Assembly: GCF_003668895.1 (NCBI RefSeq)
Contig: NZ_RAWN01000061.1
Span: forward strand, 1 to 48,830
Direction: 5' to 3'
DNA from: Corallococcus sp. AB045
Lineage (GTDB): Bacteria; Myxococcota; Myxococcia; Myxococcales; Myxococcaceae
DNA length: 48,830 nucleotides
Part shown: piece after piece, positions 77-15,134 of the stretch
Numbering within the stretch: the stretch's first letter is position 1
Layout: the number at the start of each line of letters is the position of its first letter
Notes under the pieces: generated by a model
What the model was told of the DNA's origin: nothing
The model's input: the letters and a program-made list of their open reading frames with translations, nothing else
The model's database searches: none
Translations under genes and position numbers: made by a program

Positions 77-188
77 GAAGTTCGGGACCTCCGAGCCATG
101 CCTCGCCGTGGTGGGCCGACGGCCACCGCGTCAGGGCGGGCTCCCGTGGCCGCGACGCAAGGCTGTTCCTCGTGGAGGTGCGGACCCC

Positions 189-3100
189 ATGAGCCGGCCC
201 TCCCAGCGACTGATCCAGCTCCTCCCCGGCCTCTACACGGCGCGGGACTCCACGCTCGCGGACCAGCCGCTCCTCAAGCTGCTCGCCGTGCTGGGCATGG
301 AACTGGACGCGTTCGCGAGCGCGGTGGACCAGCTCTGGGATGATCACTTCGTGGAGCGTGCGGGCCCGCAGGCGCTGCCGTTGCTCGCGGAGTTGATGGG
401 CGCACGGCTGATCACCGACGACCCTCGCGTGCAGCGCGGCGTGGTGGCTCGCGCGGTGGCGTGGCGCAGACGGAAGGGCACGCTCGCGTCGCTGGAGGAG
501 GTGCTCTCCGTCACCAGCCTCTGGGACGCGGAGGTCGACGAGTCCTTCCGTTCGCTGCTGGAGACCCAGGACCTCAATGACCTGCTGCCCTGGCGCGGTC
601 GCAGCGCGGTGATGTGGGATCCCATCGGCCTCGCGGATCCGCTCACCCGCCGCTCACCTGGCATCGAGCGTCCCCGCGACGGTGTCCCGGAGCGTGGCCC
701 CTTCATTGGCATCGCGCCGGGAGAGACGCTGGATCAGGCCTTGCGCCGGTTGGGGAGCGCGGATGCGGGCCGTGTCGCCGCGACGCCGCGCACGCTGGAC
801 CTGCTGGGCTGGGCACGTCCGGACGTCGCCCTCATCCGCACCGCGCGCCTGACGCCCGTGGAGTTGGAGGACGTCACCCCAGCCACCGTGCAAGCGCTGC
901 CCAACGGCTACCGGGGTTTCCGCGTGGATCCCCTGGACCGCGATGGTCCCCTGGTGTGGCTCAAGCCCCTGGAGCGCGCGGACCTCACCGGAGGCCTCAC
1001 CGCGCGCCATGAGCCCGCGCCTCCGTCGCTCGCCACGGGACGCACGGCGGCGATGCTGCTCACCCCCACCGCGCTGGCCGAGGACGCCGACGCCGCCGAA
1101 CGCGCGGATGCCATCACCGTCTCCGTCGACGGCATTCCGCTGGTGGGGCCGGAAGCCCTGCCGCTCCTGCGCGGACCGCTGCCCACCGCGCCCGTGGGGC
1201 CCGCGCCCACGCTGCGGTTCGCGGACCGGGGCAGGCCTTCGCCCGGAGACACCTGGCGACTGACGCTGCTCGCCGCGCGTGAGAACTCGGACACGGTGCT
1301 CCTGTCCACCGAGCTGGTGTCGGACGCCCTGAACACCGTCACCGTCACGCCGGAGGCGAACCAGCTCCTGGGCGGCACCACGGCGGCGCTGCTCGTCGAA
1401 CGCGTGAGCGGTGAGCCGCGCCTGCGCGATGTGGACGGTACGTGGCGCACCCTCGCCGTGGGCCTGCGCCAGGGGCCTCCTCGCAGCAACGCCGTCCGTG
1501 TGGACCTGGCCGGTGCGCCATGGGTCGCGCGCATCGAGCAACACCTCGCGGACGGCAGCCTGCGCCTTGCCCGCTTCGACGCGAGCGCCGACGGTGCGCC
1601 ATGGCAGGTGGTGGAGCTCAGCGGCGCGTTGCCTCCGGAGGGTCCCGGCATGTCCCTGGCCGCGGCTGGCGACTCGCTGTTGCTGGTGGCACCTGACGGT
1701 ACGGGGAAGCTGGGCGTGTGGTCGGTGACAGGCGTGGACACCGCGACTCCGACGGGGACGCGGCTGGACACCGCGAGCCCTCGGCAGCCCGCGGCGCGAC
1801 TGGCCCCCAGCCTGTGCGTGCGCGGCGGCCGGCTCTTCGTCTTCGGCGGTGACCTGGGTGGCGCGCCCACCGGAGACCTCTGGTCGCTGCCGGTCACGGG
1901 CGGACCGTGGCGTCCCCATGCGGTGCGCAACCGCCAGGAGCGCAAGGCCGCGACGCTGCTGAGCACGGCGCAAGGACTGATGCTCCTGGGCGGCGAGGCC
2001 GTGACGGGAGAACTGGCCGTGCCGGTGATGTCCTGCGACCCGGCCTCCGCGAGCCCTGTCTGGCGTTCCCTGGCCCCGCTGCCCATCACCGCGAACCTGC
2101 CCGGCACGCTCGTGGCCACCACCACCGCCGACGGCGTGGAGGCGCTCGTCTGGGCGGACACGACGCGTCCTCAATGGATGACGCTGAAGGCAGGCGAGGG
2201 TGCCTGGGTCGCGGGACTGCTGGAGCCCTCGGGCTCGAACCCGCCGGTTCCGGGTGAAGCGCTGTACGTCGATGGTCGCGTGCTCCTCGTGGATCCGGCG
2301 CCGCTGCCCGCGTCGGAGGTCGTCTTCTCACTGGGTGGGCGCGGCTACCTGGCGTTCCTGCCAGAGCTGGCCCTGCTCCCGGATGAGCTCCTGCGCTTCA
2401 ACGTCGCCAACGACGGCGCCGCGTTCATCGAGCCTCGCGAGGGCCAGCCGCTCCCGCTCGATTCCCGGCCCGGTGGCGCGTACCACTCGCGGGATGCCTC
2501 CGTCGCAGGTGGCGCGCGGCGCTACTCGGTGCCAGGACGGCTGCGGCGCCATCCGTTCCAGTTGCGCCAGCGAAGCCTGGGCCCGTGGACGACGCTCGCT
2601 CCGAGCATCGCCTCCGGCATCGTCGCGGTGGATCCGCGCCTGGGCCGCGTCGTGCTCCAGGACGACGCGCCCGTGGGCCGCGTCACCCTCTCCGCGCGGG
2701 TAGGGCGGGGCGCCTCATTGGGAGCGGGGCTGCTTCCGCCGGACCGCCGTCCGCCCGCGGCGTGGGCGGAGCCGGACTTCCCATTCATCGACCCACCGGA
2801 CCGTCCTGGCGACCGCTCCAGCACCGGCCTTCCTGTCACCGCGTGGATCTCCCCGGAGCGCGCGGGCGGAGTGCTGGCGGCCGGAGGCCAGGAGCGGCCC
2901 ATCGTCGCGACCATCGAGCAAGGTCTCGACTCCGGCGCGTCCGTGGTGCTGGCGACTGGAGGCCAGGCGCGACCCATCGGCTCGGTCGGCGCACAAGGTC
3001 TCGACTCCGGCGCGTCCGTGGTGCTGGCGACTGAAGGTCAGGTGCCGCCGGATATCGCGAACCTCGCAGAAGAGAGCCCATCCGGATCGCCGCCGATTCT

Positions 3101-3980
3101 GGGCCTCATCGGTTCGCCGCGTCTGGCTCCGGAGCGCCTGTCACAGGGGCTGGACTACGGGCTGTCCCTCTTCGCCGCGGACACGGGCGCGGTGCCCTGC
3201 ATCGGCGCGGACGAGCACGGCCTCTCGCTGGCGCTCTACCCGGGCTTCGGAGGCAGCGCGGCCACGCGTGTGTGGCTCGCGGGCCTGTGGCTCGCGGGAC
3301 GGCTGGACCTGGTGCTCGCTCGGGGACAAGCGGACCTGCGCTGGTGCAACCTGGGCGCGCCCGGACAGGTGGGACTGTGGATGCCCGGCGGTGGGCACCA
3401 GGACATCAGCGCGCGGCGCTCCCTGCCTCCCGCTGATGTGGAGCTGCGCCTCTACGGCTGCATGGTGGGCGCCATCGAGCTGCCGCCCTGGGTGCACCTC
3501 ATCGCCGCGGGCTGCACCTTCGACGCGGGGGACCGTGACGCCGTCGCCATCCGCGCGGCGGGCGCGAGCGTTCGGCTGCGGCACTGCACGGTGCTGGGCG
3601 CCACGGAGGCGGGCGTGCTGGAGGCGTCCTCCTGCGCCTTCGCGGGCGAGGTGCGCACGGACAGGCCGGACCTGGGCTGGCTGCGCTACAGCCTTCTCGC
3701 GCGCGGTGGACAGCCTCCGGTGTCGCACCAGTCGCGGGTGCACACCGTGTCCTTCCAGTCGAACCGCCAGACGGACCCGAGCTACCTCGTCCTGGGCGAC
3801 AACAACGGCCCCGAAGCGCTCCACGCCTCCGAGCGCGGCGGAGTCCCCGGTGCCCACGACGAGCGCTCCAACCACGAGCGCGAACTCCAGGCGCGCACCG
3901 ACGACAGCATGCCCATTGGCATCACGCCCTTCCACGCCGACCGCAGCCAGGACGACCTCGTCCGGATGAGCCGACCATGA
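189..3980 (+). CDS. Baseplate wedge-like protein (1263 aa). The N-terminal domain resembles phage P2 tail protein I (gpI family), fused to Kelch-type beta-propeller repeats and a long C-terminal region. Alternative upstream start at 108.
   Basis: ORF 108..3980. An internal ATG at 189 has GGAGGTG 8 nt upstream, so it is preferred. The N-terminus (LLPGLY...LWDD...ALPLLAELMG...RGVVARAVAWRRRKGTLASLEEVL) matches from memory the conserved pattern of P2 gpI (LLP...LLPWLAW...KRAVIRDA..HCHKGTIGAIRRVV). The middle has Kelch-like repeats (LFVFGGDLGGAPTGDLWSL, LMLLGGEAVTGEL). The stop TGA overlaps the start of the next gene (ATGA). Confidence 0.7.
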   Translation: MSRPSQRLIQLLPGLYTARDSTLADQPLLKLLAVLGMELDAFASAVDQLWDDHFVERAGPQALPLLAELMGARLITDDPRVQRGVVARAVAWRRRKGTLASLEEVLSVTSLWDAEVDESFRSLLETQDLNDLLPWRGRSAVMWDPIGLADPLTRRSPGIERPRDGVPERGPFIGIAPGETLDQALRRLGSADAGRVAATPRTLDLLGWARPDVALIRTARLTPVELEDVTPATVQALPNGYRGFRVDPLDRDGPLVWLKPLERADLTGGLTARHEPAPPSLATGRTAAMLLTPTALAEDADAAERADAITVSVDGIPLVGPEALPLLRGPLPTAPVGPAPTLRFADRGRPSPGDTWRLTLLAARENSDTVLLSTELVSDALNTVTVTPEANQLLGGTTAALLVERVSGEPRLRDVDGTWRTLAVGLRQGPPRSNAVRVDLAGAPWVARIEQHLADGSLRLARFDASADGAPWQVVELSGALPPEGPGMSLAAAGDSLLLVAPDGTGKLGVWSVTGVDTATPTGTRLDTASPRQPAARLAPSLCVRGGRLFVFGGDLGGAPTGDLWSLPVTGGPWRPHAVRNRQERKAATLLSTAQGLMLLGGEAVTGELAVPVMSCDPASASPVWRSLAPLPITANLPGTLVATTTADGVEALVWADTTRPQWMTLKAGEGAWVAGLLEPSGSNPPVPGEALYVDGRVLLVDPAPLPASEVVFSLGGRGYLAFLPELALLPDELLRFNVANDGAAFIEPREGQPLPLDSRPGGAYHSRDASVAGGARRYSVPGRLRRHPFQLRQRSLGPWTTLAPSIASGIVAVDPRLGRVVLQDDAPVGRVTLSARVGRGASLGAGLLPPDRRPPAAWAEPDFPFIDPPDRPGDRSSTGLPVTAWISPERAGGVLAAGGQERPIVATIEQGLDSGASVVLATGGQARPIGSVGAQGLDSGASVVLATEGQVPPDIANLAEESPSGSPPILGLIGSPRLAPERLSQGLDYGLSLFAADTGAVPCIGADEHGLSLALYPGFGGSAATRVWLAGLWLAGRLDLVLARGQADLRWCNLGAPGQVGLWMPGGGHQDISARRSLPPADVELRLYGCMVGAIELPPWVHLIAAGCTFDAGDRDAVAIRAAGASVRLRHCTVLGATEAGVLEASSCAFAGEVRTDRPDLGWLRYSLLARGGQPPVSHQSRVHTVSFQSNRQTDPSYLVLGDNNGPEALHASERGGVPGAHDERSNHERELQARTDDSMPIGITPFHADRSQDDLVRMSRP
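2919..3049 (+). repeat. In-frame tandem duplication inside the gpI-like gene: 2 copies with a 75-bp period, encoding QGLDSGASVVLATxGQ twice.
   Basis: caaggtctcgactccggcgcgtccgtggtgctggcgactg occurs at 2919 and again at 2994. The first 40 nt are identical and the similarity then decays. Confidence 0.8.
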
Positions 3981-6900
3981 CCGTGAAAGCGTACACCTCC
4001 AGGTCCCGCTTCGACGAAGCCCGGCGATTCTCCGGCGTCTATCAGCAGATGGGGCGCATGAGCCTCGACGCCGACTGGAACGAGGAGGTGCGGCTGCGCA
4101 CCGTGGACGCGCGCCGCCGCTCCGCCGATGTCGCCGAGGGCTCGCCTGATGACGGCTTCCGCATCGTCGACACGTACCTCGTGGACCCCATCCGCAACGT
4201 GCTCGGCTGGACAGGGCAGGGCCTGCCCGCGGACGACGAGCGCACCATCCCGCGCGAGCTGCGCCTGGACCGCTACGACACGGAGACGCTGCCCTTCGTG
4301 GTGCGCAGCCGGGGCCACGTCGCGCTGCGCCGCACGCTGCCCGCGCCGTTGGATCTCACGGCCGTGCCGCGCTCGGACGGCACCGCCTTCACCGCCTCCG
4401 CGCTCGTCATCAGCTTGCGCTTCGAACGGCCGCCCACCGACGATGAGTTCATCGACCTGCAAGTGGTCGTCGCGGACACGGAAGGGAACGAGACGGTCCT
4501 CTCCGCCGGTCTGGGCCAGCGACCCACGGGCTGGAACGACGTGCGCTTCCCCGTCGCCGCGTTCGCGAGCGTGGACCCGGCGAAGCTGAGCTCCTGGGGA
4601 GTGCTGGGCCTGCCGCCCGTGGCCCGCACGTGGGTGGCCGCGCTGCGCGTGGAGGACGCGGCGCTGGGCGCCGATATCATTATAAGAGGCGGTGACGGGA
4701 CGCTGCCGGGCGCGGGCCGCATGCTGCTCGACGGCGTGCGCGTCTTCCTGGAGCAGGACCTGCGCTACTCCGCGCAGCCGGACCTGCCAGAGGCGCCTCC
4801 GCTGGCGGCGCTGCCCACGGACGGCTCGCGGCACCACTTCTTCTTCCTCGACTGCTGGGAGCAGACCACCACCCAGTACGACGACGCGTTCCTGGAGGAG
4901 CCCGCGCTGGACGGCCAGGACACCACCGTACGCCTGCGGCTCGTCACCCAGGTGCGCGCGCTCCAGGGGCTGGCCGCAACCGACGCGGAAGACCTGCCCA
5001 CGCCCACCAGCGGCGCACGCCTCACCACCAACATCCCGAAGGGCGCGCTACCGGACCGCTTCCCACCGGAGCCGCTGGACCCCTGCCGCGACCGCTGCCT
5101 GTCCACGGAGAACGCCTCCACGGGCGAGGGCTACACGGGCTCCGACAACCTCCACTTCCGCGTGGAGTTCTTCCGGGGCGGCGCGCAGCCGGTGGTGCTG
5201 TGGTCGCGAGACAACGGCTCCATGGTGCTCCCGCTCACCGCAGCCGCGGCGGCGGACGCGATGACGCTCCAGGTCTCCCCCGCGAGCGCCGCGAAGCTGC
5301 GCGCGGGTGACCTCGTCGTCATCGAGGACAGCGTCACCCGACTCCAGCCGGAAGGCCCATCACTGCCAGTGCTGCGGAGGCTGCGAGGCGTCCAGGCGGA
5401 CACGGGCACGCTGGAGCTGGCGGACGCGAGCGCCGTGCTCACCACCGACCCCGTGCCGCTCCCCGTGGGAGGCACGCTGGGCCGGGCCTTCAGTCCGGAG
5501 CAGGGCGCGGTGGTGCGCCGGTGGGACGGCGGCGACCTGCTGGTGCCCGGCGTGCGCTACCGCTTCGACGACGGCATCACCCTGGCCTTCGCCAACACGG
5601 AAGGGCGCGCGACCGAATACTGGTCCTTCACCGTGCGAGTGCGCGCGGCGGACGGCGCGGCCCGGGGGGAAGTCGAGCAGCTCACGGACGCGCCCGTGCA
5701 CGGCCCGGTGCACCATTGCGTGCCACTGGCGCGCGTAACAGGCGGCGCGACGCGGAGCTTCGAGGACCTGCGCCCGCGCTACCTGCCGCTCGCCCAGGTG
5801 CGAGACAGATTGGTGGAGCTCTCCGAGCGTGTCATCGGCCCGGGTGTCTTCACGGTGGTGGTGGGCGACGGCGTGCGCAGCTTCGGCGACGTGGACCAGG
5901 ACCTGCTCGAAGGCATCACCGGCGACGAGGCGCTCCAGGCCGCGGTGGACAGCATGGGCGGGCAGGGCGGCTCCATCTTCGTGCGAGCCGGCCGCTACAA
6001 GTTGGAGCACCCGGTGCTGCTGCGCAACCTGTCCTCCGTGCACCTCCTGGGCGACGGCGAGGCCACCGAGCTGCGCACCCAGGGCTCCGGCGGAGCCTTC
6101 TTCGTGGACCGCTGCGGCCTGGAAGGCGACCTGCGCATCGAGGACTTCAAGCTGGTGGAGGCGCCCTTCGAGGACGTGGTGATTGGCGGCGGCCTCCAGC
6201 CCGTGGTGAAGGCCGTGAAGGCGAGCGTGGCCTTGACGAACGGCCAGCGCTTCGTGCCGCTGGCGGAGGTGGACGACGACCGGGTGCTGGAGGAGGACGA
6301 CGTGAAACACCCGTCCGCCGAAGCCGACTTCGTGGACGTGGTCGTCGACCGCATCAAGGCCATCGTCCCGGGCCAGGGCCGCGCGGCGGGCTCCGTGGTG
6401 GCCACGCTGGTGCAGTTGCGCAAGCTTCAACGCCAGCATCCAGGCCAGCCACTGGAGGACGTGCCGGAGGCGAAGCCGCTGCTCGACGCGCTGGCGGCGC
6501 TGCCGCACGGCGTGGTGACGCTGGCGGACTCCAGCGGCGTGACGCTGCGCCGCTGCCACATCCAGGCGAACCAGGCCGGCTCGGAGGCGACAGGCGTGCT
6601 GGTGACGGGCACCTGCGAGCGCATCGTCATCGACGAGAACCGCGTCGGCGCGGCGACAGGCATCGCGGTGGCGCCGTATGCCCCGTATCTCGCGGAGCGC
6701 TTCCTCGCGTCCTTCCCGCGCGCGGGCCTGTTCGTGGACGCGCTGGCCATCACCAACAACCGGCTTGAGCCGCTGGGAGACGCGACCACGGGCATCCACG
6801 TGGCGGACGGGCTCCTCGCGGGCGTGGAGGTGCGCGGCAACCGCATCCAGGGCTTCCTCGTGGGCATCCTGGTGCAGGACCTGGCGGAAGGGGGGCTCGC

Positions 6901-9900
6901 GGGGCCGGTGGACCGCGTGGTGGTGGCGGAGAATCAGATCCTCGGCTCCGCGGCCGTGGGCATCCAGGTCGCGGGCGACGGCGTGGACATCGTGGGCAAC
7001 GAGATCCGCAACGCCGTGTCGGACAGCCTGTTCCAGGTGGGCATCCAGCTGGCGGGCCGGGCGCTGCGCGTGCGCGAGTCGTGGATCTCCCTGCCGGCCG
7101 TGCCCGCCGCGTCCGTGCTGGGCGTGGTGGCCGGCATCGTCGTGGGCGACGGCCTGGATGACGGCGCGTCCAACGGCCGCCCCGCCTCGGACGTGGAGGT
7201 GGTGGACAACCGCATCGAGGGAGACGGCGAGTCCACACCGGGCTTTGGCATCCTGCTGGGCGGTCCGCAGCCGGTGTTCGACGTGCGCATCCGAGGCAAC
7301 GTGGTGCGCGCGCTGGGGGACTCGGCCGTGCGCACCTGGGGCACGGGCGGCGCGGTGGGGCGCCTGCGCGTGGAGGACAACCGCTTCGAACAGGTGGCGC
7401 TCGCGGACGTGCCGTCGCAGGAGGACAACACGCTGGCGCTGTCCCGCCTGGACCCGGGCCTGGAGGCAGTGCTGAGCGCGGACGCGAAGGCCCGTCCCCG
7501 CCCACTCGTGGAAGCGCTCCTCGCCAACGCCACGACCCGCGTGCGCGCCCCCCTGGACGCTGCGCTGCGCTGGCTGGAGAGGCTGACGCTCCGGGGCGCG
7601 GTGGTGCTCTCGGGCGTGGACGAGGCGCAGGTGCGCGGCAACCGGCTGCTCCAGGTGGGGCGGACGGAGGCCTACGGCGCGCCCGGGCTCCCGGACGCGG
7701 AGGTGCGCGCGGCGGGCATCGCGGTGGTGTCCGGCTCCGGCATCACCGTGGAGGGCAACGAGGTGGACGGCGTGCACGCGCCGGTGACGACGACGCAGCC
7801 GCCGCCGGTGCCAGGGCCCGTGAAGCTGCCGCCCATCACCGTGGTGCTCCAGCAACTCAGTGTCACGAGCACCACCGTCCGCCCGGAGCGCGCGGACGTG
7901 CACGGCGCCGTGGTGGGCATGTACGGCACCCTCTTGCAGTACACGGGCGCGAACGTGGACGGGCGCCAGAAGATCGGCCGGGGCCTGTACGGCCCGCTCG
8001 ACACCCTGGTGGTGGAGCTGGAGGACCTGGGGACCGTGCCCGACTCCGTCCTCAATGCGCTGGTGACGGACGTGGCGGATCTGCGTACCGCCCAGGGCTT
8101 CAACGATCACACCCAGACCTCGCACGCGGTGCGCTCGTCGCTGGCGCGCGCCTCCAGCTTCACCGCCCCGGAGCCTGTGTCCCAGGAGGCGTGGGACATG
8201 GTGGCGCAGTTCGACCTGGCCACCGTGTCCGGCAAGGACGCCGTGGCGAGCACCGCGGACCGCATCAAGGGCGCCTTCGACTCGCTGGTGCAGGGGCTGC
8301 CCTCCGACACGCAGGATTTCCTCCTCAAGGCCCTGGCCCGGGTGCAGGGCGGGCCGGGTGACCTGGCCGCGATCGTCATGCTGGCGGGGGCGTTGAGCCA
8401 GGTGGCTCTGCTGCGCGAGGCGCAGGCGCAGCGCGCGCGGCAGCCCGTCATCGGCCAGGCGGTGGGCCCCAAGAAGACCATCATCGGCACCTTCGCCCAG
8501 GCCGCGTTGCAACAGCTGCCGCTCCAGCCGGGCACCCGGGGCGCGACGGCCAACACGGACGTGCTCGTGCAGCTGCGCACGTCCAAGGACGCCCTGACGG
8601 ATCAACTCCAGGAGCTCCACCCCGCGCTGGCCTCGCAGGTGGAGGCGGACTACCGCGACGTGGAGCGCACGGGCGGCCAGCTGCAGCCGGTGGTGGACCG
8701 CATGCGCGCCACGCTCCAGCAGGTGCTGGACTTCACCACCGGCGTCCTGCCCTCGTCGGACGTCACGCCGGAGGACGGCGCGCGCGTCGCGGCGCAGGGG
8801 CTCACCGCCACCATCGGCCTGTACGCCACGAATCTGGACCGGCAGGCGGCGGGCCTCGTCACCGAGTCCGACGACACGGTGGAGAAGCAGCTGCGCGCCT
8901 TCGGCACCGCGGTGGGACAGCTGGGCGAGCTGGTGAGCGGCGACGCGGAGCTGTCCGCGCTCTCGTTGCAGGCGCACCAGGCGGTGATCAACGCCATCGC
9001 CCAGCCGCAGAATCGGTTGGAGCAGGTGTCCATCGCCCGGGGACTGCTGGACCGCATCCGGGTGCAGACGCTGGACGTGCTCCCGGTGCCCACGCCCCTG
9101 CCGCCCGTGCCGGTGCAGGCGGAGCCGCTGGAGCGCTGGGTCTCCGCCCTGGGCGCGTTGGTGCTGGCGGTGCGCGGCATGGCGCCGGGGCCGGTGCTCA
9201 GCGGCTCGTTGCAGCTCTACCTCTCCCAGTACGACCGCGTGCTGGACATCGCGGGCGTCCAGGGGAAGCTCCGCACGCTGGCGCTCCAGCGCGTGAACGA
9301 CGCCATCACCGCGCTCACCAGCGGCAACGGCGACGTGCCCGCGCGTCAGGCCCTGCACCTGCTGGTGGACGAGCCCGCCACCACCGCCGCGGAGGCCGTC
9401 GCCAGATCCAGCGCGGTGACGGCCGAACTGGACGCCGCCGCGGTCCTGCTGCGCGCCGTGGAGCAGGCCCTGGACCCCGCCGAGGACGACGCGTCGCGAG
9501 TCGCGAGGCTCCAGGAGTACCTGCGCCAGCGCGCCGACAAGGTCTCCGCGTCGCTCGTCGCCGTCGTCACCGGCATGCAGGCGCTGGACGCCATCCTGGA
9601 CATGCTGCGCAAGTCGCTGGAGCAGCTGGCGCGCGGCGAGGCGCCGGACCCCGGAGACCTGGTGGACCCCGTCTTCGACACCTTCCCGTCGCCCGCGGAC
9701 GGCCTCTTCGTGTCCGGCGTGCAGGGCCGCGTGCGGCTGGCGGACAACACCGTGCGCGACACCGCCACCGGCATCACCGCCCTGGGCGCGGCGGGCCACC
9801 TGCTGACGGAGGCACCGACGGATCCTGGCTCGCTGCTGGACGTGGATGGCAACCGGCTGGAGGGCTGCGCGGTGGCGGGCCTGCGGCTCTTGCCGGACCT

Positions 9901-11590
9901 GTCCGTGACGGTGGTCTCCGACAACCACCTCTTCGCCTGCGCGGGCCTGCCCACGGCGGGCGAGCCCGGACTGGGCCAGGCGGTGGCCTCCTTCGTGGGC
10001 TCCGGCGAGCTGGTGGTGAAGGGCAACGTCTTCCTGGAGAGCGGCAACACGCTGCCGCAGGCGGTGCTCCACGAGGTGGCCATCGACTGGCGAGGCGAGA
10101 CGGTGGTGCGCGGCAACACCGTGCGCCACGCGGGCGGCGGGGGCGGAGGCGCGGGCGTCCTCGTCGTCACGGACACGCTGCCTCCGGGCCTGGTGGCGAA
10201 GCTGTCGCGCGTGCCCTTCCTCGCCACGGATCCGGTGCCCAAGCCGAGCACGGACGGCCGCGCGGTCCTCGGTAAGCCCGCGCCGTCCGCCGTGGCCACG
10301 CTGGCCTCGGTGCCTCGCGTGGAGGACCTGGTGCAGCTGGGTTCGCTGAAGCAGAAGTTCGCCTCGGGGCCGGTGCTCAACCGCGCGCTCACGGTGACGG
10401 CCGCGGACTTCGCGCCCAGCCTGAGCGCCAGCGCGGCGGCCTCGCGCTACCTCTCGGCGACGACGGCGCTGGTGCAGCCCGCGCTGGTGGACTTCCTCGT
10501 CAAGCCCATCCCCATCCTCCCGAGCCCGGTGGTGAAGGAGAAGAGGGGCGTGCAGGTGGAGGGCAACGACATCACCGCGCGAGGCCCGGCGCTGCTCCTG
10601 CTGGGCAACGGCGGCGCGGTCATCTCCGCCGCCGTGTCCGGCAACGAGCTGCGCAGCGAGGGCGCCGTGGGCGCGGTGTACCTGCGCCGCGCGGACTCCA
10701 CCGTCTTCAGCGGCAACCGGTGCCAGTGCCTGGACGCGGTGAACGTCGTCGTCCTGCGCGTGGAGCGCGCGCCGGTGACCTTCACCGGCAACGTGGTGCT
10801 GGGCGCGGAGACGGTGACGCCGCCCCGCCCGGTGCTGCGCCCCCAGTGGCTGATGCCCTCGGACACGCTCACGCTCCAGATTCCCGTGGGCGGAGGCTCC
10901 ACCCTGGGCGTGCCCCTGGACCAGGAGCTGCTCCTGGGCGGCCTCCAGCGCCGCCGCGACGTGGCGAGCGATGCCTTCTCCACGCTGCTCGCGGAGCTCG
11001 TCACCCAACCCGTTCCCCTCCCGCCCCAGGCCGGGCCGGAGTTCCCCTCCAAGGGCGTGCTGGACCTCCCCACCATGCAAGACGTCCGCTCGAAGCTGCC
11101 CGCGACCATGGACGTGACCATGGCGGCCCGGACGCTCTACGGCATCGCGGTGACGAAGGACGACTCACCCACGAGCGCGCTGCGGGACCTGGTGGACCGC
11201 GTCGCGATGCACGCGGACAGGCCCGAGGACGTGCAGGGCCAGGTGCGCTCCGTGCTGGCCGCGGCGGAGGGCGACCCGAAGAAGGCGCTCCAGTTGGTGG
11301 ACAAGAGCGTGCTCGGCATCGACTCGGCGGCGTCCACGGTGAAGGAGAGCATCCTCAACGTCTCCGTGCTGCACGAGGTGCTGGCGGACTCGTTCTACAC
11401 GGGCGACACCTCCGGCCCCAAGCCGGTGCAGGACGCGGGCATCCGGCCCCTCCCGCCGGAGCCGCCGCCGGATCCGTATGCCCACTCCGTCATCATCCTG
11501 GGCGGCTCGCGCGTGGCCGCCGTCGGCAACGCGACCACCTCCGGCGTGCACGTCCAGGAAGCCGACGCCGTGGTGGAGCTCAACCCGTAG
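3977..11590 (+). CDS. Giant (2537 aa) right-handed parallel beta-helix repeat protein. It is a tail-fibre/adhesin-like baseplate-associated protein with a conserved N-terminal module (YTSRSRFDEARRFSGVYQQMGRMSLDADWNE).
   Basis: ATG 3977 overlaps the stop of the gpI-like gene (ATGA). Many PbH1-type repeats are present (NRIEGDG, IRGNVVRALG, VEDNRFEQV, VRGNRLLQVG, VEGNEVDGV, VEGNDITARG, VSGNELRSEG, FSGNRCQC, FTGNVVLG). The composition is protein-like, whereas the antisense ORF 5360..11080 is Arg/His/Gly-rich junk. Its position after a gpI-like gene mirrors P2 gene order (I then fibre H). Confidence 0.75.
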   Translation: MTVKAYTSRSRFDEARRFSGVYQQMGRMSLDADWNEEVRLRTVDARRRSADVAEGSPDDGFRIVDTYLVDPIRNVLGWTGQGLPADDERTIPRELRLDRYDTETLPFVVRSRGHVALRRTLPAPLDLTAVPRSDGTAFTASALVISLRFERPPTDDEFIDLQVVVADTEGNETVLSAGLGQRPTGWNDVRFPVAAFASVDPAKLSSWGVLGLPPVARTWVAALRVEDAALGADIIIRGGDGTLPGAGRMLLDGVRVFLEQDLRYSAQPDLPEAPPLAALPTDGSRHHFFFLDCWEQTTTQYDDAFLEEPALDGQDTTVRLRLVTQVRALQGLAATDAEDLPTPTSGARLTTNIPKGALPDRFPPEPLDPCRDRCLSTENASTGEGYTGSDNLHFRVEFFRGGAQPVVLWSRDNGSMVLPLTAAAAADAMTLQVSPASAAKLRAGDLVVIEDSVTRLQPEGPSLPVLRRLRGVQADTGTLELADASAVLTTDPVPLPVGGTLGRAFSPEQGAVVRRWDGGDLLVPGVRYRFDDGITLAFANTEGRATEYWSFTVRVRAADGAARGEVEQLTDAPVHGPVHHCVPLARVTGGATRSFEDLRPRYLPLAQVRDRLVELSERVIGPGVFTVVVGDGVRSFGDVDQDLLEGITGDEALQAAVDSMGGQGGSIFVRAGRYKLEHPVLLRNLSSVHLLGDGEATELRTQGSGGAFFVDRCGLEGDLRIEDFKLVEAPFEDVVIGGGLQPVVKAVKASVALTNGQRFVPLAEVDDDRVLEEDDVKHPSAEADFVDVVVDRIKAIVPGQGRAAGSVVATLVQLRKLQRQHPGQPLEDVPEAKPLLDALAALPHGVVTLADSSGVTLRRCHIQANQAGSEATGVLVTGTCERIVIDENRVGAATGIAVAPYAPYLAERFLASFPRAGLFVDALAITNNRLEPLGDATTGIHVADGLLAGVEVRGNRIQGFLVGILVQDLAEGGLAGPVDRVVVAENQILGSAAVGIQVAGDGVDIVGNEIRNAVSDSLFQVGIQLAGRALRVRESWISLPAVPAASVLGVVAGIVVGDGLDDGASNGRPASDVEVVDNRIEGDGESTPGFGILLGGPQPVFDVRIRGNVVRALGDSAVRTWGTGGAVGRLRVEDNRFEQVALADVPSQEDNTLALSRLDPGLEAVLSADAKARPRPLVEALLANATTRVRAPLDAALRWLERLTLRGAVVLSGVDEAQVRGNRLLQVGRTEAYGAPGLPDAEVRAAGIAVVSGSGITVEGNEVDGVHAPVTTTQPPPVPGPVKLPPITVVLQQLSVTSTTVRPERADVHGAVVGMYGTLLQYTGANVDGRQKIGRGLYGPLDTLVVELEDLGTVPDSVLNALVTDVADLRTAQGFNDHTQTSHAVRSSLARASSFTAPEPVSQEAWDMVAQFDLATVSGKDAVASTADRIKGAFDSLVQGLPSDTQDFLLKALARVQGGPGDLAAIVMLAGALSQVALLREAQAQRARQPVIGQAVGPKKTIIGTFAQAALQQLPLQPGTRGATANTDVLVQLRTSKDALTDQLQELHPALASQVEADYRDVERTGGQLQPVVDRMRATLQQVLDFTTGVLPSSDVTPEDGARVAAQGLTATIGLYATNLDRQAAGLVTESDDTVEKQLRAFGTAVGQLGELVSGDAELSALSLQAHQAVINAIAQPQNRLEQVSIARGLLDRIRVQTLDVLPVPTPLPPVPVQAEPLERWVSALGALVLAVRGMAPGPVLSGSLQLYLSQYDRVLDIAGVQGKLRTLALQRVNDAITALTSGNGDVPARQALHLLVDEPATTAAEAVARSSAVTAELDAAAVLLRAVEQALDPAEDDASRVARLQEYLRQRADKVSASLVAVVTGMQALDAILDMLRKSLEQLARGEAPDPGDLVDPVFDTFPSPADGLFVSGVQGRVRLADNTVRDTATGITALGAAGHLLTEAPTDPGSLLDVDGNRLEGCAVAGLRLLPDLSVTVVSDNHLFACAGLPTAGEPGLGQAVASFVGSGELVVKGNVFLESGNTLPQAVLHEVAIDWRGETVVRGNTVRHAGGGGGGAGVLVVTDTLPPGLVAKLSRVPFLATDPVPKPSTDGRAVLGKPAPSAVATLASVPRVEDLVQLGSLKQKFASGPVLNRALTVTAADFAPSLSASAAASRYLSATTALVQPALVDFLVKPIPILPSPVVKEKRGVQVEGNDITARGPALLLLGNGGAVISAAVSGNELRSEGAVGAVYLRRADSTVFSGNRCQCLDAVNVVVLRVERAPVTFTGNVVLGAETVTPPRPVLRPQWLMPSDTLTLQIPVGGGSTLGVPLDQELLLGGLQRRRDVASDAFSTLLAELVTQPVPLPPQAGPEFPSKGVLDLPTMQDVRSKLPATMDVTMAARTLYGIAVTKDDSPTSALRDLVDRVAMHADRPEDVQGQVRSVLAAAEGDPKKALQLVDKSVLGIDSAASTVKESILNVSVLHEVLADSFYTGDTSGPKPVQDAGIRPLPPEPPPDPYAHSVIILGGSRVAAVGNATTSGVHVQEADAVVELNP

Positions 11591-11621: not shown

Positions 11622-11963
11622 ATGCCCGACCCCTTCGCCCTCAGTGGCCGCGTCGCCCTCCAGCGCACAGCGCTGCCCGAAGTCACGCTCTCCGCCACGC
11701 CGGACGCGCCCGACGCGAAGGCCGCGGCGCTGGAGAACCTGTCCGGCACGCGCGCGAAGCTGGACCTGGACACCACGGTGCTCCGAGCGCTGGACGTGCG
11801 CATCTCCCGCCTGCCGCCGGTGCCCGCGGTGCCCGTGACGCTCCAGGACCTGGTGCGCGCCGCGCGCCGCAGGCTCGCCTCCGAGCGCCAGCGCGACGTG
11901 GGCGTCTGGGTGGACACGCGCGTGAAGCTGGCCACGCGGCTGGTGCAGAAGCTGGAGGAGTGA
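11622..11963 (+). CDS. Hypothetical protein (113 aa), upstream of the spike gene.
   Basis: ATG at 11622 lies 32 nt after the fibre gene stop. The six-frame ORF 11478..11963 extends upstream but would overlap the fibre gene. No recognisable domain. Confidence 0.5.
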   Translation: MPDPFALSGRVALQRTALPEVTLSATPDAPDAKAAALENLSGTRAKLDLDTTVLRALDVRISRLPPVPAVPVTLQDLVRAARRRLASERQRDVGVWVDTRVKLATRLVQKLEE

Positions 11964-12172
11964 TGCGCAAGCTGCTCGAAGCCAGCATGGGGCAGCGCTG
12001 CTACCTCTTCACCACGCTGGGCCAGGTGTACGTGGGCCTGGTGGTGGAGCTCATCGACGACGTCGTCCACCTCACCGGGCCGGATGGCGCCACACCCGTC
12101 TACATCAACCTGTCGGACGTCTCTGGCGTGCGCCAGTACGACGAGGACGACGACCTGGGGAGCGCGCGATGA
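11963..12172 (+). CDS. Small hypothetical protein (69 aa), acidic C-terminus, immediately preceding the spike gene. No PAAR motif.
   Basis: ATG 11963 has GGAGG 4 nt upstream and overlaps the previous stop (TGATG). An alternative GTG start lies at 11960. The stop overlaps the spike start (ATGA at 12169-12172). Confidence 0.5.
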   Translation: MRKLLEASMGQRCYLFTTLGQVYVGLVVELIDDVVHLTGPDGATPVYINLSDVSGVRQYDEDDDLGSAR

Positions 12173-13356
12173 TCGAACAACTGCTGCAGCAGCTCATCGA
12201 ACGCACAGAGAGCCGCTACTTCGGCAAGTACCGGGGCTACGTGACGAACGTCTCGGATCCCCTCAACCTGGGGCGCATCCAGTGCGTGGTGCCGCGCCTG
12301 ATGGGAGACGTGGCCACGGGCTGGGCCATGCCGTGCACGCCGTACGCGGGGCCGGATCAGGGTCTCTTCGTGGTGCCGGACGTGGGCGCGGGTGTCTGGG
12401 TGGAGTTCGAGGGCGGAGACCTGACCCAGCCCATCTGGAGCGGCATGTGGTGGGGGCAGCCCGCGCTCGCGGACCTGGGCCAGCCGGACTCCACCGCGCG
12501 CGTGGCCCCGGACGTCAGTGAGATTCCCAAGCACGACTATCCGCCCCAGTCCGCGGTGCCGGGCGTGCGGATGCTCAAGTCCGCCACGGGCCACTACATC
12601 GTCCTGGACGACCGGCCGGAGACAGCACGCGTGGAGATCCACGACCGGCAGGGCAACCGCGTCATCCTGTCCGCGGAAGGCCTGGACCGGCTCATCAGCA
12701 ACGAGCGCACGGTGAACGAGGGCAACCGCTCCGCGGAGGTGGACGGCGACGACCACCTGGAGGTGGCGGGCAACCAGGACGAGACGGTGGACGGCAGCCA
12801 CACCCGCGACGTGGGCGGGGACGTGTCGCTGCACGTGACGGGGTCGCTGACGGAGAAGGTGGACGTGGCGGGCTACTCGCGCACGGTGGGCGGCAGTGGC
12901 CTGAAGGAGATCGTCGGCGGTCCGCGTGAGGACCGCATCCAGGGCAGCCACACGCGCATCGTCTCCGGCGCGTCGCAGGAGACGGCGGTAGGGGGCTTTG
13001 GCGTCACGTCCGGGGGCAACATGAACCTGGCAGCGGGCAAGGCGGTGAAGGTGGCCGCGGCGATGCCGGACCTGCCGGGACCGTCGCTCAACGCCGTCTC
13101 CATTGACGCGCTGGCGGGCAACGTGTCCATCAACACGATGCTGGGCGTGTGCCAGGTGGGAGGCCTCTCCGCCATCTCGCCCATGGTGCTGGGGGACGGG
13201 CTGGCCATCCACTTCACGATGCTGGCGCAGATCCTCAAGGCGGTGAACCCGCTGACGGTGGCCGCGTACGGGCCGCTCCTGGATGTCTGGGCGGCGATGA
13301 CGCCGATGCTGGACTGGTCCTACTTCGGCTTCGTCAAGCGCATGCCGGTGGGGTGA
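12169..13356 (+). CDS. Baseplate central spike/hub protein, phage gpV / gp5 / VgrG-like. It has an N-terminal OB-fold and a beta-helical repeat region.
   Basis: N-terminus GYVTNVSDPLNLGRIQCVVPRLMGDVATGWAMPCTPYAGPDQGLFVVPDVGAGVWVEFEGGDLTQPIWSG is the classic Phage_base_V/gp5 OB-fold signature. It is followed by short VxGxxxxxV-type repeats. 395 aa. Confidence 0.8.
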   Translation: MIEQLLQQLIERTESRYFGKYRGYVTNVSDPLNLGRIQCVVPRLMGDVATGWAMPCTPYAGPDQGLFVVPDVGAGVWVEFEGGDLTQPIWSGMWWGQPALADLGQPDSTARVAPDVSEIPKHDYPPQSAVPGVRMLKSATGHYIVLDDRPETARVEIHDRQGNRVILSAEGLDRLISNERTVNEGNRSAEVDGDDHLEVAGNQDETVDGSHTRDVGGDVSLHVTGSLTEKVDVAGYSRTVGGSGLKEIVGGPREDRIQGSHTRIVSGASQETAVGGFGVTSGGNMNLAAGKAVKVAAAMPDLPGPSLNAVSIDALAGNVSINTMLGVCQVGGLSAISPMVLGDGLAIHFTMLAQILKAVNPLTVAAYGPLLDVWAAMTPMLDWSYFGFVKRMPVG

Positions 13357-13360
13357 CGCG

Positions 13361-13555
13361 ATGAAGGAGCCCGGCTGGAAGCCACTGGAAGCTTCGGTGC
13401 TGCGCGAGCGGCTGGAAGAGGTGAAGGCCTTGCTGCTCCAGGCGGCGGCGGTGGGCGTGGCCCAGGACGCCGAGCGGCTGGAGAAGCTGATGGAGCTGGA
13501 ACAACGCACCCGGGAGGACGCGCGTGGCCGAGTTCAACGACGCCGCTATCGCTGA
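13361..13555 (+). CDS. Small charged helical/coiled-coil protein (64 aa).
   Basis: ATG 13361 lies 5 nt after the spike stop. It overlaps the next gene by 32 nt in another frame. The composition is coiled-coil-like (LRERLEEVKALLLQ...ERLEKLMELEQRTRE). Confidence 0.4.
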   Translation: MKEPGWKPLEASVLRERLEEVKALLLQAAAVGVAQDAERLEKLMELEQRTREDARGRVQRRRYR

Positions 13556-15134
13556 GCTCCACGGCGCGCTGGAGGTCTGCTGCGAGGAGCTGGCGAAGGC
13601 GCTGGAGGATGCGGAAGGCACGGACACCACCGGCGCTGACGCCGGGGCCGGGCCTGCGTGGCGGCCGCTGCTGATCGGCGTGCCGCCGGGGCTGGAGCAG
13701 CTGGTGGGCATCGTCAAGCCGCCGCTGCAGATCATCATCGCGGTGCTCCAGTTCGTGCAGGCGCTGCTCCAGGCGCTGGCGGCCATCCTCCTGGGGCTGC
13801 CGGATCCGTTCCGGGCGCTCATCCTCGCGGCCTACGAACTGCTCAAGGACATCATCAACGACCTGCTCAACGCGGGTGCGTACCTCTACGCGGACGCGCC
13901 GGGCATCAGTCCCACGGAGACGAACCTGGCGGAGACGGGCTTCATCCCGAACATCCCCAAGGACTTCAAGGCGGGCTTCGCGCTGGAGCGCCCGCCGGTG
14001 ACGCCGGATGGCTTCGCGCGCTGGGCGGGGCGGTTCGTCGCGTCCTTCGATGATCCGGGGGACGACTCGCGCCCGACGGTGACGGATGGCGCGCCGGTGC
14101 AGGCGGTGTTCATCGTGATGGCGGCGCCGTCGCTGGATGCGCTCCGGCAGGCGCTGTACCTGCTGGGCAAGCTGCTCAACATCAGCGCGTTCAAGAAGGC
14201 GTTCGAGAAGTACCCCAAGGGCGCGTTGGATCCGCGCCGCAGCCGGGCGCGTGGCCGGCCGGTGAAGCCGGATTGGAAGTCCGCGCGCATGCGCGACCTG
14301 TTCCCGGACCTGGAGAAGCTGCTCATCCTCCCGGAGGCGCTCAGGGCGCTGCTCCTGTCGGTGGACAACCTGGCGACGCTCCTGCGGAGCCTCGCCGCCG
14401 CGATGCAGGACAAGGTGCAGGTGTTGATGAAGCTGGCGCAGGCGGTGCAAGCCATCATCGACCTGCTGAACGCGCTCAAGTCCGCGGGCATGTACGCGCT
14501 GCCGGTGTCCACGACGGGCGGCGTGGCGGGGTTGAAGCAGGCCTTCCTCACTGCGACGAACCGGCCGCCGGGCGGCTACGTGGGAGGCATCTGCCTGCTG
14601 GCGGCGGGGCCCAACCTGGCGAAGGCCGCGATGCTCTGGGAGCTGCTGGGCCTGTCCGCCGCGATGGAGCTGGCGTCGGGAGACCTCACGCTCCAGGACG
14701 TGAAGAAGGCCCTGGAGGAGAGCCAGGCGGCGCAGGTGCTGGAGGCGAACACGGACGAGGTGAAGGACGCCTGGGGCAACCTGAAGACGACGGCCCAGAA
14801 GCAGGCGGACAAGTTCGTGAACGCGGTGGAGAAGGCGCCTGAGAGGTTCGTGAAGGCGGTGGGGCGCACGCCAGATGAACTGAAGGCCGCCGCCGAGCGA
14901 GGCCGCTCCACGCTGGTGGAGGTGCTGGACCAGTCGAAGGAGCACGTGGAGGAACAGAAGGAGATCCTGGAGGGCATGCTGTCCACGAAGCACTCCCAGC
15001 GTCGGGGAGGGCGTTCGCTGGCGATCGGCTTCGGAGGTCCCGGCGCGTCCGAGCGCCCGCCGAGTCCGCAGCCCCCCGCGGCTGACACGTCCACGCCGAC
15101 ACCGACCCCGCCGAAGAAGGGAAGCGGCCCGTGA
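13524..15134 (+). CDS. Hypothetical predominantly alpha-helical protein (536 aa). A tape-measure/assembly-like role is speculative.
   Basis: GTG start 13524 with GGGAGGA 8 nt upstream. It is Leu/Ala-rich and helical with a C-terminal Pro/Thr-rich tail. The stop overlaps the next start (GTGA). Confidence 0.6.
   Translation: MAEFNDAAIAELHGALEVCCEELAKALEDAEGTDTTGADAGAGPAWRPLLIGVPPGLEQLVGIVKPPLQIIIAVLQFVQALLQALAAILLGLPDPFRALILAAYELLKDIINDLLNAGAYLYADAPGISPTETNLAETGFIPNIPKDFKAGFALERPPVTPDGFARWAGRFVASFDDPGDDSRPTVTDGAPVQAVFIVMAAPSLDALRQALYLLGKLLNISAFKKAFEKYPKGALDPRRSRARGRPVKPDWKSARMRDLFPDLEKLLILPEALRALLLSVDNLATLLRSLAAAMQDKVQVLMKLAQAVQAIIDLLNALKSAGMYALPVSTTGGVAGLKQAFLTATNRPPGGYVGGICLLAAGPNLAKAAMLWELLGLSAAMELASGDLTLQDVKKALEESQAAQVLEANTDEVKDAWGNLKTTAQKQADKFVNAVEKAPERFVKAVGRTPDELKAAAERGRSTLVEVLDQSKEHVEEQKEILEGMLSTKHSQRRGGRSLAIGFGGPGASERPPSPQPPAADTSTPTPTPPKKGSGP

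Follow-up and report, generated by a model that had tools for sequence, protein, structure and literature searches.

A giant DUF6519/eBAP5 tailspike-like protein in a contractile-injection locus of Corallococcus sp. AB045

RESULTS AND DISCUSSION

A giant gene directly downstream of a gpI-like baseplate gene

A 48,830-nucleotide stretch of the Corallococcus sp. AB045 genome (contig NZ_RAWN01000061.1, positions 1 to 48,830 of the forward strand; here called the window) carries a complete gene at 3977..11590 (+) for a tailspike-like DUF6519/eBAP5 protein of 2,537 amino acids (aa). This giant gene probably encodes the tail fiber or tailspike, a baseplate appendage, of a complete phage-tail-like contractile injection system (CIS). 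The first-pass annotation of this DNA had proposed a baseplate-attached spike or fiber with a conserved N-terminal module and β-helices, and this core proposal is supported by the DUF6519/eBAP5 assignment, by synteny with a gpI-like gene, and by the lack of an export signal. However, the anchor spans about 620 aa and contains an insert, a third of the protein is α-helical, and the protein is neither fast evolving nor modular, so the fiber interpretation had to be corrected on these points.

The open reading frame (ORF) at 3977-11590 (+) is uninterrupted (2,537 aa, with the stop codon included in the coordinates), and its GC contents at the three codon positions (GC1, 0.76; GC2, 0.48; GC3, 0.95) are those of genuine coding DNA where the genomic GC content is 73%. 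A hypothetical protein deposited for Corallococcus sp. AB045 (P0001) has exactly the sequence of its product (100% identity). The start codon, ATG at 3977, shares bases with the TGA stop codon of the gpI-like gene before it (ATGA), which implies that the giant gene is cotranscribed and translationally coupled with this gpI-like wedge gene. The length had been described as extreme for a tail fiber, and this holds, since the ordinary DUF6519 proteins encountered here have 860 to 1,840 aa. The window has a GC content of 67 to 74% and contains 174 ORFs of at least 100 aa, and long spurious ORFs are therefore plentiful. An antisense ORF of 1,906 aa inside the giant gene (5360-11080, −) failed the GC3/GC2 filter and was rejected as an artifact of the high GC content, which indicates that ORF length by itself is unreliable evidence for a gene in this window.

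The protein is divided as follows.
aa 1-55 (3977..4141, +): anchor peptide with a DADWNE motif and a long helix at aa 31-54 (Pfam DUF6519, BLASTP, AlphaFold2 model)
aa 56-240 (4142..4696, +): family-specific β-sandwich insert of ~185 aa (BLASTP gap, AlphaFold2 model)
aa 241-620 (4697..5836, +): DUF6519 core, the best-conserved part of the protein (BLASTP aa 239-704, Pfam profile positions 131-179)
aa 621-1270 (5837..7786, +): right-handed β-helix 1 (Pfam Beta_helix at aa 925-1029, PHROG tail spike, AlphaFold2, Foldseek)
aa 1271-1337 (7787..7987, +): Pro/Gly-rich linker (12% Pro, 12% Gly; zero positions at least 95% conserved)
aa 1338-1887 (7988..9637, +): all-α module of 550 aa with ~24 helices (AlphaFold2, 79% helix, pLDDT about 90)
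aa 1888-2315 (9638..10921, +): right-handed β-helix 2, with a disordered loop at aa ~2093-2185
aa 2316-2500 (10922..11476, +): second helical region, the most variable part (AlphaFold2, 60% helix, helices at ~2316-2475)
aa 2501-2537 (11477..11587, +): conserved C-terminal β-strands with the motif SLVVxGGxRVxAVGNxTTAG (strands modeled at aa 2505-2536)

A complete DUF6519/eBAP5 module at the N terminus

The N terminus matches Pfam DUF6519 (PF20129) at aa 7-53 (E value, 4.4e-9; 35.9 bits against a gathering cutoff of 22.4 bits), and a second DUF6519 stretch, corresponding to profile positions 131-179, surfaces when the protein is scanned in segments. The N-terminal motif opens every member of the giant family as well as the ordinary DUF6519 proteins. 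In a BLASTP comparison with one ordinary DUF6519 protein (P0092), aa 3-52 align with its residues 1-50 and aa 239-704 align with its residues 71-503 (E value, 9e-27), and a similar pattern was obtained with another ordinary DUF6519 protein (P0091). This two-block alignment indicates that the whole domain has been kept and that about 185 inserted residues divide it; the predicted DUF6519 module of the giant protein is thus complete, spans aa 1-620, and is interrupted by a 185-aa β-sandwich. The conserved N-terminal attachment module of ~40 aa that had been noted at first is thus conserved and is a Pfam DUF6519 match, but the real module, with its insert, has ~620 aa.

The anchor peptide (aa 1-55) is almost invariant in Corallococcus, with zero nonsynonymous changes relative to C. 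coralloides. The insert is missing from P0092, in which aa 50 runs straight into aa 71, and in the AlphaFold2 model it has 49% strand and 2% helix. Foldseek alignments of about 190 columns to the jelly rolls of the carbohydrate-binding modules (CBMs) CBM4-2, CBM11, and CBM22 (E values, 2e-4 to 1e-3) are tentatively attributed to this segment, which is probably a CBM-like jelly roll in the model. The DUF6519 core is β-rich in the model (~aa 240-600) and is followed by a linker helix at aa 605-616; 15.5% of its positions are at least 95% identical among 75 homologs, and its ratio of nonsynonymous to synonymous substitutions (dN/dS) relative to C. coralloides is 0.10.

DUF6519 is eBAP5, one of five baseplate-anchor domains in the tail fibers of extracellular CIS (eCIS) (Nat Commun, January 2026, PMC12923769). 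That study lists 658 eBAP5 genes in Tail_P2_I-type baseplates, often with pectin-lyase-fold C termini, describes a partial “shoulder” fold that eBAP5 has in common with eBAP3 and eBAP4, and proposes from AlphaFold-multimer models that loops of the Tail_P2_I protein are the docking site of the N-terminal module (PMC12923769). In sequence and synteny, the giant protein is a predicted member of this DUF6519/eBAP5 fiber-anchor class.

Two β-helices separated by a helical module

Monomer models were built with AlphaFold2 for aa 1-1200 (mean predicted local distance difference test score [pLDDT], 85.8) and aa 1338-2537 (mean pLDDT, 78.2), each from a 31-sequence alignment. In these models, β-helix rungs make up ~31% of the protein, α-helical modules make up ~32%, and the DUF6519 anchor module makes up 24%. 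The rungs lie at aa ~626-1270 (aa 1201-1270 being assigned from sequence) and ~1910-2313, and the last 33 aa also have this form. The first-pass annotation had taken all of the remainder for PbH1 β-helix; two β-helix blocks are indeed present, but the rungs account for only ~31% and a further ~32% is α-helical. HMMER searches recovered Beta_helix (PF13229; E value, 1.2e-11) together with DUF6519, since published as the eBAP5 anchor. The suggested tailspike-, depolymerase-, or adhesin-type architecture also agrees with structure comparison, in which both β-helices match phage tailspikes, depolymerases, and lyases or epimerases.

In β-helix 1, rungs were modeled at ~aa 626-1140, with a disordered or helical insertion at aa ~738-842 and helices at aa 1152-1199. 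Its Foldseek matches include GH87 glucanases, the RbmB lyase, Klebsiella phage depolymerases, and the tailspikes of Sf6, HK620, and P22 (E values, 3e-6 to 1e-3). Other structural neighbors are the AlgE4 and AlgG epimerases, phi29 gp12, many tailspikes, PL6 alginate lyases, GH110, and GH87, and the adhesins PfbA and Vag8 are also among the neighbors of the β-helix domains. Invariant Asp and Arg residues occur where β-helix 1 begins, and β-helix 2 has an invariant His/Arg/Tyr set (H1941, H2032, R2050, H2051, Y2235, and R2237). The strictly conserved polar residues cluster in these two places and in the DUF6519 core, and the helical modules have essentially none.

The 550-aa all-α module has 0.9% invariant positions and a dN/dS of 0.37. 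A search of 1.84 billion representative proteins gave 21 matches, every one of them either a member of the same family, at the same position, or a fragment, and by sequence the module is exclusive to the giant family. A Foldseek search of this module against PDB gave no significant match (Tom71, α-catenin, and vinculin, E values of 0.04 to 0.1; talin weaker), and self-BLAST detected no internal repeats. The second helical region has zero invariant positions, 11 to 26% identity and up to 35% gaps across the family, and a dN/dS of 0.51. The C-terminal strands have a mean identity of 53% across the family and are kept in all phyla.

A Pfam scan of the protein in seven segments, at E values of up to 1, gave DUF6519 and Beta_helix and otherwise noise, and an NCBIfam scan matched no family. 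Sequence searches of PDB with the protein and with a 31-sequence family profile gave nothing meaningful, the best matches being designed helical bundles (E value, about 0.005). Neither a signal peptide nor a transmembrane segment was found, and the maximum hydropathy within the first 60 aa is −0.63; a secretion signal, which would have pointed to a free adhesin, is thus absent. With no signal for export, the giant protein has to be built into a particle in the cytoplasm.

A fixed family in three phyla

A homology search gave 90 strong matches (E values, 0 to about 1e-273), 84 of them full length. The full-length homologs have a median length of 2,592 aa (5th to 95th percentile, 2,438 to 2,698 aa) and, outside Corallococcus, 36 to 56% identity to the window protein. 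They occur in Myxococcota (Corallococcus, Sorangium, and Minicystis), Actinomycetota (Micromonospora, Cryptosporangium, and Cellulomonas), and Alphaproteobacteria (Rhodospirillaceae and Mesorhizobium). Beyond the giant family, the matches fall abruptly to ordinary DUF6519 proteins of 1,400 to 1,840 aa that match the N terminus only. An alignment of 75 full-length members is colinear and nearly gap-free, and mean identity to the window protein varies along its length as follows.
aa 1-700: 50 to 68% (33% at aa 151-200)
aa 800-1250: 37 to 60%
aa 1250-1900: 22 to 31%
aa 1900-2300: 33 to 58% (15% at aa 2101-2150)
aa 2300-2500: 11 to 26%
last 37 aa: 53%

In C. coralloides DSM 2259, the ortholog is COCOR_03275. 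Relative to C. coralloides, dN/dS is 0.23 overall, 0 to 0.2 in the anchor, and 0.37 to 0.51 in the helical modules, and it never exceeds 1. Neither diversifying selection nor domain swapping was found in these comparisons of Corallococcus orthologs. The giant gene lies directly downstream of a gpI-like gene in 16 of 16 testable related loci as well as in three further loci (L001 to L003), across three phyla, so that the search for homologs beside gpI-like genes in other genomes succeeded in every testable locus. In remoter CIS lineages, such as that of Yinghuangia, an ordinary DUF6519 protein of 860 to 917 aa occupies the same slot. Together with the invariant placement, this indicates that the giant arose by expansion within this lineage and is passed on with the baseplate, not exchanged. 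The clusters of Micromonospora and Rhodospirillaceae share 44 to 69% identity per gene, and either shares 37 to 68% with that of Corallococcus; the closeness of the former two indicates that the whole cluster was transferred between phyla. The giant protein is thus a fixed, coevolving component, unlike a fast-evolving modular receptor-binding fiber.

Searches for the anchor module gave zero matches among 50,697 phage genomes and nothing closely related from IMG/VR, and a scan with the DUF6519 profile hit 2 of 2.9 million viral contigs in IMG/VR. On these grounds, a phage origin of the anchor was rejected. One of these two contigs filed as viral, IMGVR_UViG_3300047160_027034 (L036), encodes Baseplate_J and two further proteins, one of 1,095 aa and one, with DUF6519, of 988 aa (E value, 5e-43), and it looks like a CIS-type arrangement and not an evident phage. 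A literature search gave no publication about this CIS lineage from myxobacteria.

The contractile-injection locus

The machine parts upstream of the window edge were read from orthologous loci, which were retrieved by alignment of the giant protein and Baseplate_J. There, the genes stand in the order 804-aa sheath, gp19-type tube, 291-aa protein, CIS_tube, LysM/tail-X protein, gpD hub, 1,256-aa Baseplate_J, ~840-aa protein without a Pfam match, gpI-like protein, giant, proteins of ~110 aa and ~70 aa, spike, and proteins of ~65 aa, 536 aa, and 720 to 820 aa. The CIS families identified by Pfam are Phage_sheath_1/1C, Phage_T4_gp19, CIS_tube, Baseplate_J, Tail_P2_I, and Phage_base_V, with Phage_GPD weak and below its gathering score. 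This complete set of genes places the giant gene in the fiber slot of a complete CIS, and the locus, known here from its genes, is predicted to be such a system with eCIS markers. The following genes of the system lie in the window.
108..3980 (+): gpI-like (Tail_P2_I) baseplate gene with a Kelch-like propeller (Pfam Tail_P2_I, E value 4.2e-7)
11622..12172 (+): two small genes right after the giant gene, for 113 aa and 70 aa (synteny)
12169..13356 (+): gp5/VgrG-like spike gene (Pfam Phage_base_V, E value 8.8e-24; Gp5_trimer_C)
13524..15134 (+): gene for a helical 536-aa protein after the spike gene (weak PHROG tape-measure match, E value 6e-5)
30888..33329 (−): AAA+ ATPase gene with a weak Pvc16_N region, Afp15/16-like (Pfam AAA, E value 1.1e-24)

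The gpI-like protein is the presumed docking partner of the giant protein. The GTG start of its gene at 108 was placed mechanically and probably lies too far upstream. The annotated C. coralloides ortholog has 1,213 aa, and the conserved “SRPSQRLIQLLPGLY” start of Tail_P2_I is preceded by an ATG at 189, which is one candidate for the true start. The two small downstream genes are kept in three phyla at 37 to 69% identity, have weak Pfam matches only (DUF6897; E value, 0.015), and could encode assembly chaperones or small baseplate parts. The Pvc16_N match of the AAA+ ATPase (E value, 8.5e-4) is below the gathering score, and eCIS_core (DUF4157; E value, 1.5e-25) was found in the orthologous Rhodospirillaceae locus, beyond the CIS genes.

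Several parts of this CIS are oversized, namely the 804-aa sheath, the Baseplate_J of 1,250 to 1,500 aa, and the gpI of ~1,250 aa with its Kelch propeller, and the lineage has an extra protein of 814 to 846 aa without a Pfam match between Baseplate_J and gpI. The place of the gene at 13524-15134, after the spike gene, is unusual for a tape-measure candidate; next comes a gene for a conserved protein of 720 to 820 aa without a family match. Another giant gene, at 22715-30856 (−), adjoins the AAA/Pvc16_N gene and encodes 2,713 aa (GC3, 0.92) with three Annexin repeats (PF00191; E value, 1.2e-21). Annexin repeats are unusual in bacteria, and this protein may be a CIS cargo or a structural protein. 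The gene at 41214-43490 (+) encodes a bacterial homolog of the eukaryotic Major Vault Protein (MVP_shoulder, E value 4.8e-45; Vault repeat domains). Outside the CIS core, the gene at 45208-46887 (+) encodes LysM and T6SS_VgrG3-like_C domains (E value, 9.1e-53), and its product is probably a peptidoglycan-degrading protein.

Proposed role and rival explanations

As a tail fiber or tailspike, the giant protein would dock with its N-terminal 620 aa onto loops of the Tail_P2_I protein, as proposed for eBAP5 (PMC12923769), probably as trimers like those of Cis19 (PMC8894136). The two β-helices, and probably the CBM-like insert too, would bind a surface polysaccharide of the target cell and perhaps cleave it, and the α-helical modules may be a weakly constrained spacer or hinge that sets the reach. 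Engagement would be relayed via the anchor to the baseplate and lead to sheath contraction, by analogy with phage tails and AlgoCIS. A fixed, coevolving appendage of this size suggests a conserved ligand.

Several observations weigh against this role. A mosaic or hypervariable block, the hallmark of receptor-binding proteins, was sought among 11 Corallococcus orthologs, and none was found. The length is tightly conserved across three phyla (the 2,438 to 2,698 aa given above), and the interphylum identity of the giant protein (42 to 52%) is close to that of Baseplate_J and gpI in the same genome pairs (46 to 55%). A sequence profile searched against PDB revealed no likeness between the N-terminal module and the Cis19 crown (7b5h), and this structure is absent among the 50 Foldseek matches listed, a list dominated by β-helices. 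The proposed anchor role of DUF6519 is based on gene position and on AlphaFold-multimer models from the literature. In addition, catalytic residues are not assignable, and neither β-helix has an alignable catalytic motif.

The static evolution of the protein favors the main alternative, in which it is an integral extension or anchor of the baseplate (TssK-like or Cis19 crown-like) that scaffolds the CIS on the envelope, exopolysaccharide, or an internal structure of the producer, with the β-helices binding a self polymer. Myxobacteria and actinomycetes include lineages with intracellularly acting CIS, such as the Streptomyces CIS. Coevolution with core baseplate genes without any swapping and the closely kept length in three phyla are in line with such a role, eBAP3/5 systems have been likened to the TssG-TssK baseplate of the type VI secretion system (T6SS) (PMC12923769), and in a CIS with a membrane anchor, six trimers of eBAP4 (Cis19) make up a fixed crown (PMC8894136). 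However, the protein has no transmembrane segment or membrane-anchor feature, its tailspike and glycan-enzyme folds suit outward-facing binding, and the cluster has the eCIS hallmarks AAA/Pvc16_N (weak) and, in the Rhodospirillaceae locus, eCIS_core; we consider this alternative unlikely. A chiefly enzymatic role overlaps the tailspike interpretation: one or both β-helices would be a lyase, epimerase, or hydrolase that degrades a conserved barrier polymer ahead of the spike, with adhesion secondary. His/Tyr/Arg chemistry is typical of uronate lyases and epimerases. The top structural neighbors are enzymes (GH87, RbmB, AlgE4/AlgG, PL6, GH110, and phage depolymerases), the invariant His/Arg/Tyr set of β-helix 2 and the Asp and Arg residues at the start of β-helix 1 also favor such a role, and a conserved substrate would account for the missing diversification. 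Nevertheless, no catalytic motif can be aligned, identity to any enzyme is 7 to 17%, no CAZy-type Pfam or NCBIfam family was matched, and the pure adhesins PfbA and Vag8 have the same fold with equal scores. A chiefly enzymatic protein is therefore possible but doubtful.

Two further explanations can effectively be set aside. β-Helix adhesins exist, and PfbA and Vag8 are among the structural matches, but the idea that the giant protein is such an adhesin, secreted or at the cell surface and without a link to the tail machine, is effectively refuted, since the protein lacks a signal peptide, TPS domain, autotransporter barrel, and transmembrane segment (Pfam and hydropathy), its gene overlaps the gpI gene, and the synteny inside CIS clusters is invariant. 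The helical region of ~550 aa might recall a tape measure that determines tail length. This is effectively excluded, because the separate 536-aa helical protein downstream of the spike carries the (weak) tape-measure PHROG match, and the helical module of the giant protein sits between two folded β-helices, is joined to a baseplate-periphery anchor, and resembles no tape-measure family.

In a broader proposal, the giant protein would not be a variable receptor-binding fiber. The loci may represent an undescribed “extra-large” CIS lineage, with the oversized parts named above and the extra protein (~830 aa) as a wedge component, that was passed as a unit among Myxococcota, Actinomycetota, and Alphaproteobacteria. 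The 280-kDa appendage would be its signature, a fixed two-enzyme “leg” whose lyase/epimerase-like β-helices, split by the helical domain, act on or are tethered to one universal polymer (a conserved cell-wall glycan or exopolysaccharide of the target or of the producer). This proposal is speculative and rather unlikely; if true, the specificity of the machine would be set differently from that of all characterized eCIS.

Comparison with known systems

The closest described proteins are the eBAP5 fibers, including the “mega pectin lyase” of Rhizobium grahamii (PMC12923769), which resemble the giant protein in the DUF6519 N terminus, the slot after Tail_P2_I, and a pectin-lyase β-helix behind the anchor. 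The giant protein is 2.4 times longer than the mega pectin lyase (2,537 versus 1,079 aa), and the longest modeled chains there have about 1,220 aa (PMC12923769). Unlike the published eBAP5 fibers, it has a 185-aa insert, two β-helices, two helical modules, and no macroglobulin shaft, and it is evolutionarily static and not modular, whereas the catalog treats DUF6519/eBAP5 proteins as modular, rapidly diversifying fibers (PMC12923769). The class is thus already published, and with its giant size and helical module the protein is an apparently undescribed variant of it.

Cis19 (eBAP4; PDB 7b5h) forms the crown of the thylakoid-anchored CIS of Anabaena, in which trimers are mounted on the baseplate and the flexible distal parts have been proposed to be small fibers (PMC8894136). 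The likeness to this crown lies in a bulky, nonfibrous baseplate appendage; however, the giant protein has no detectable profile similarity to any PDB chain, the Cis19 baseplate is of the Afp11/12 type and not Tail_P2_I, and Cis19 is without enzyme-like β-helices. Tail_P2_I proteins have been likened to TssG and eBAP3 fibers to TssK (PMC12923769). TssK and the giant protein are both conserved, nonswappable baseplate components, but the published likeness concerns eBAP3 and not eBAP5, and TssK has ~450 aa and is tied to a membrane complex, which the giant's locus does not have.

Phage tailspikes and depolymerases (P22, Sf6, HK620, 9NA, the CBA120 TSPs, and those of Klebsiella and Acinetobacter phages) and phi29 gp12 have the right-handed parallel β-helix body in common with the giant protein, as well as an N-terminal particle-binding module and an assumed role in binding or cleaving polysaccharides. 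In contrast, the giant protein is 4 to 5 times larger, its tandem β-helices are split by a helical module, and its anchor is practically absent from phages. The adenovirus-like fibers Afp13 and Pvc13 (eBAP1) are β-spiral shafts with a knob that are anchored to Afp12/gp25-type baseplates (PMC12923769). They are alike in the operon slot after the wedge genes and in presumed function, but Pfam, PDB, and fold searches gave no sequence or fold similarity and no β-spiral shaft or eBAP1 N terminus in the giant protein.

Significance

Engineering work is turning eCIS into programmable devices for protein delivery, whose target range is set by their fibers. The interest of the giant protein lies in an architecture that is conserved in three phyla, in a helical domain exclusive to the family, and in an evolution that is atypical for a receptor-binding fiber. 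With 2,400 to 2,800 aa, colinear, conserved in length, and coinherited with the baseplate, the giant family behaves in the opposite way to the cataloged eBAP5 proteins. If it is merely a very large spike, the protein would be a routine member of the cataloged class. Should a conserved glycan be its ligand or substrate, the protein would provide two new β-helix carbohydrate-active modules and would point to broad-range or self-anchored CIS targeting in predatory myxobacteria and actinomycetes.

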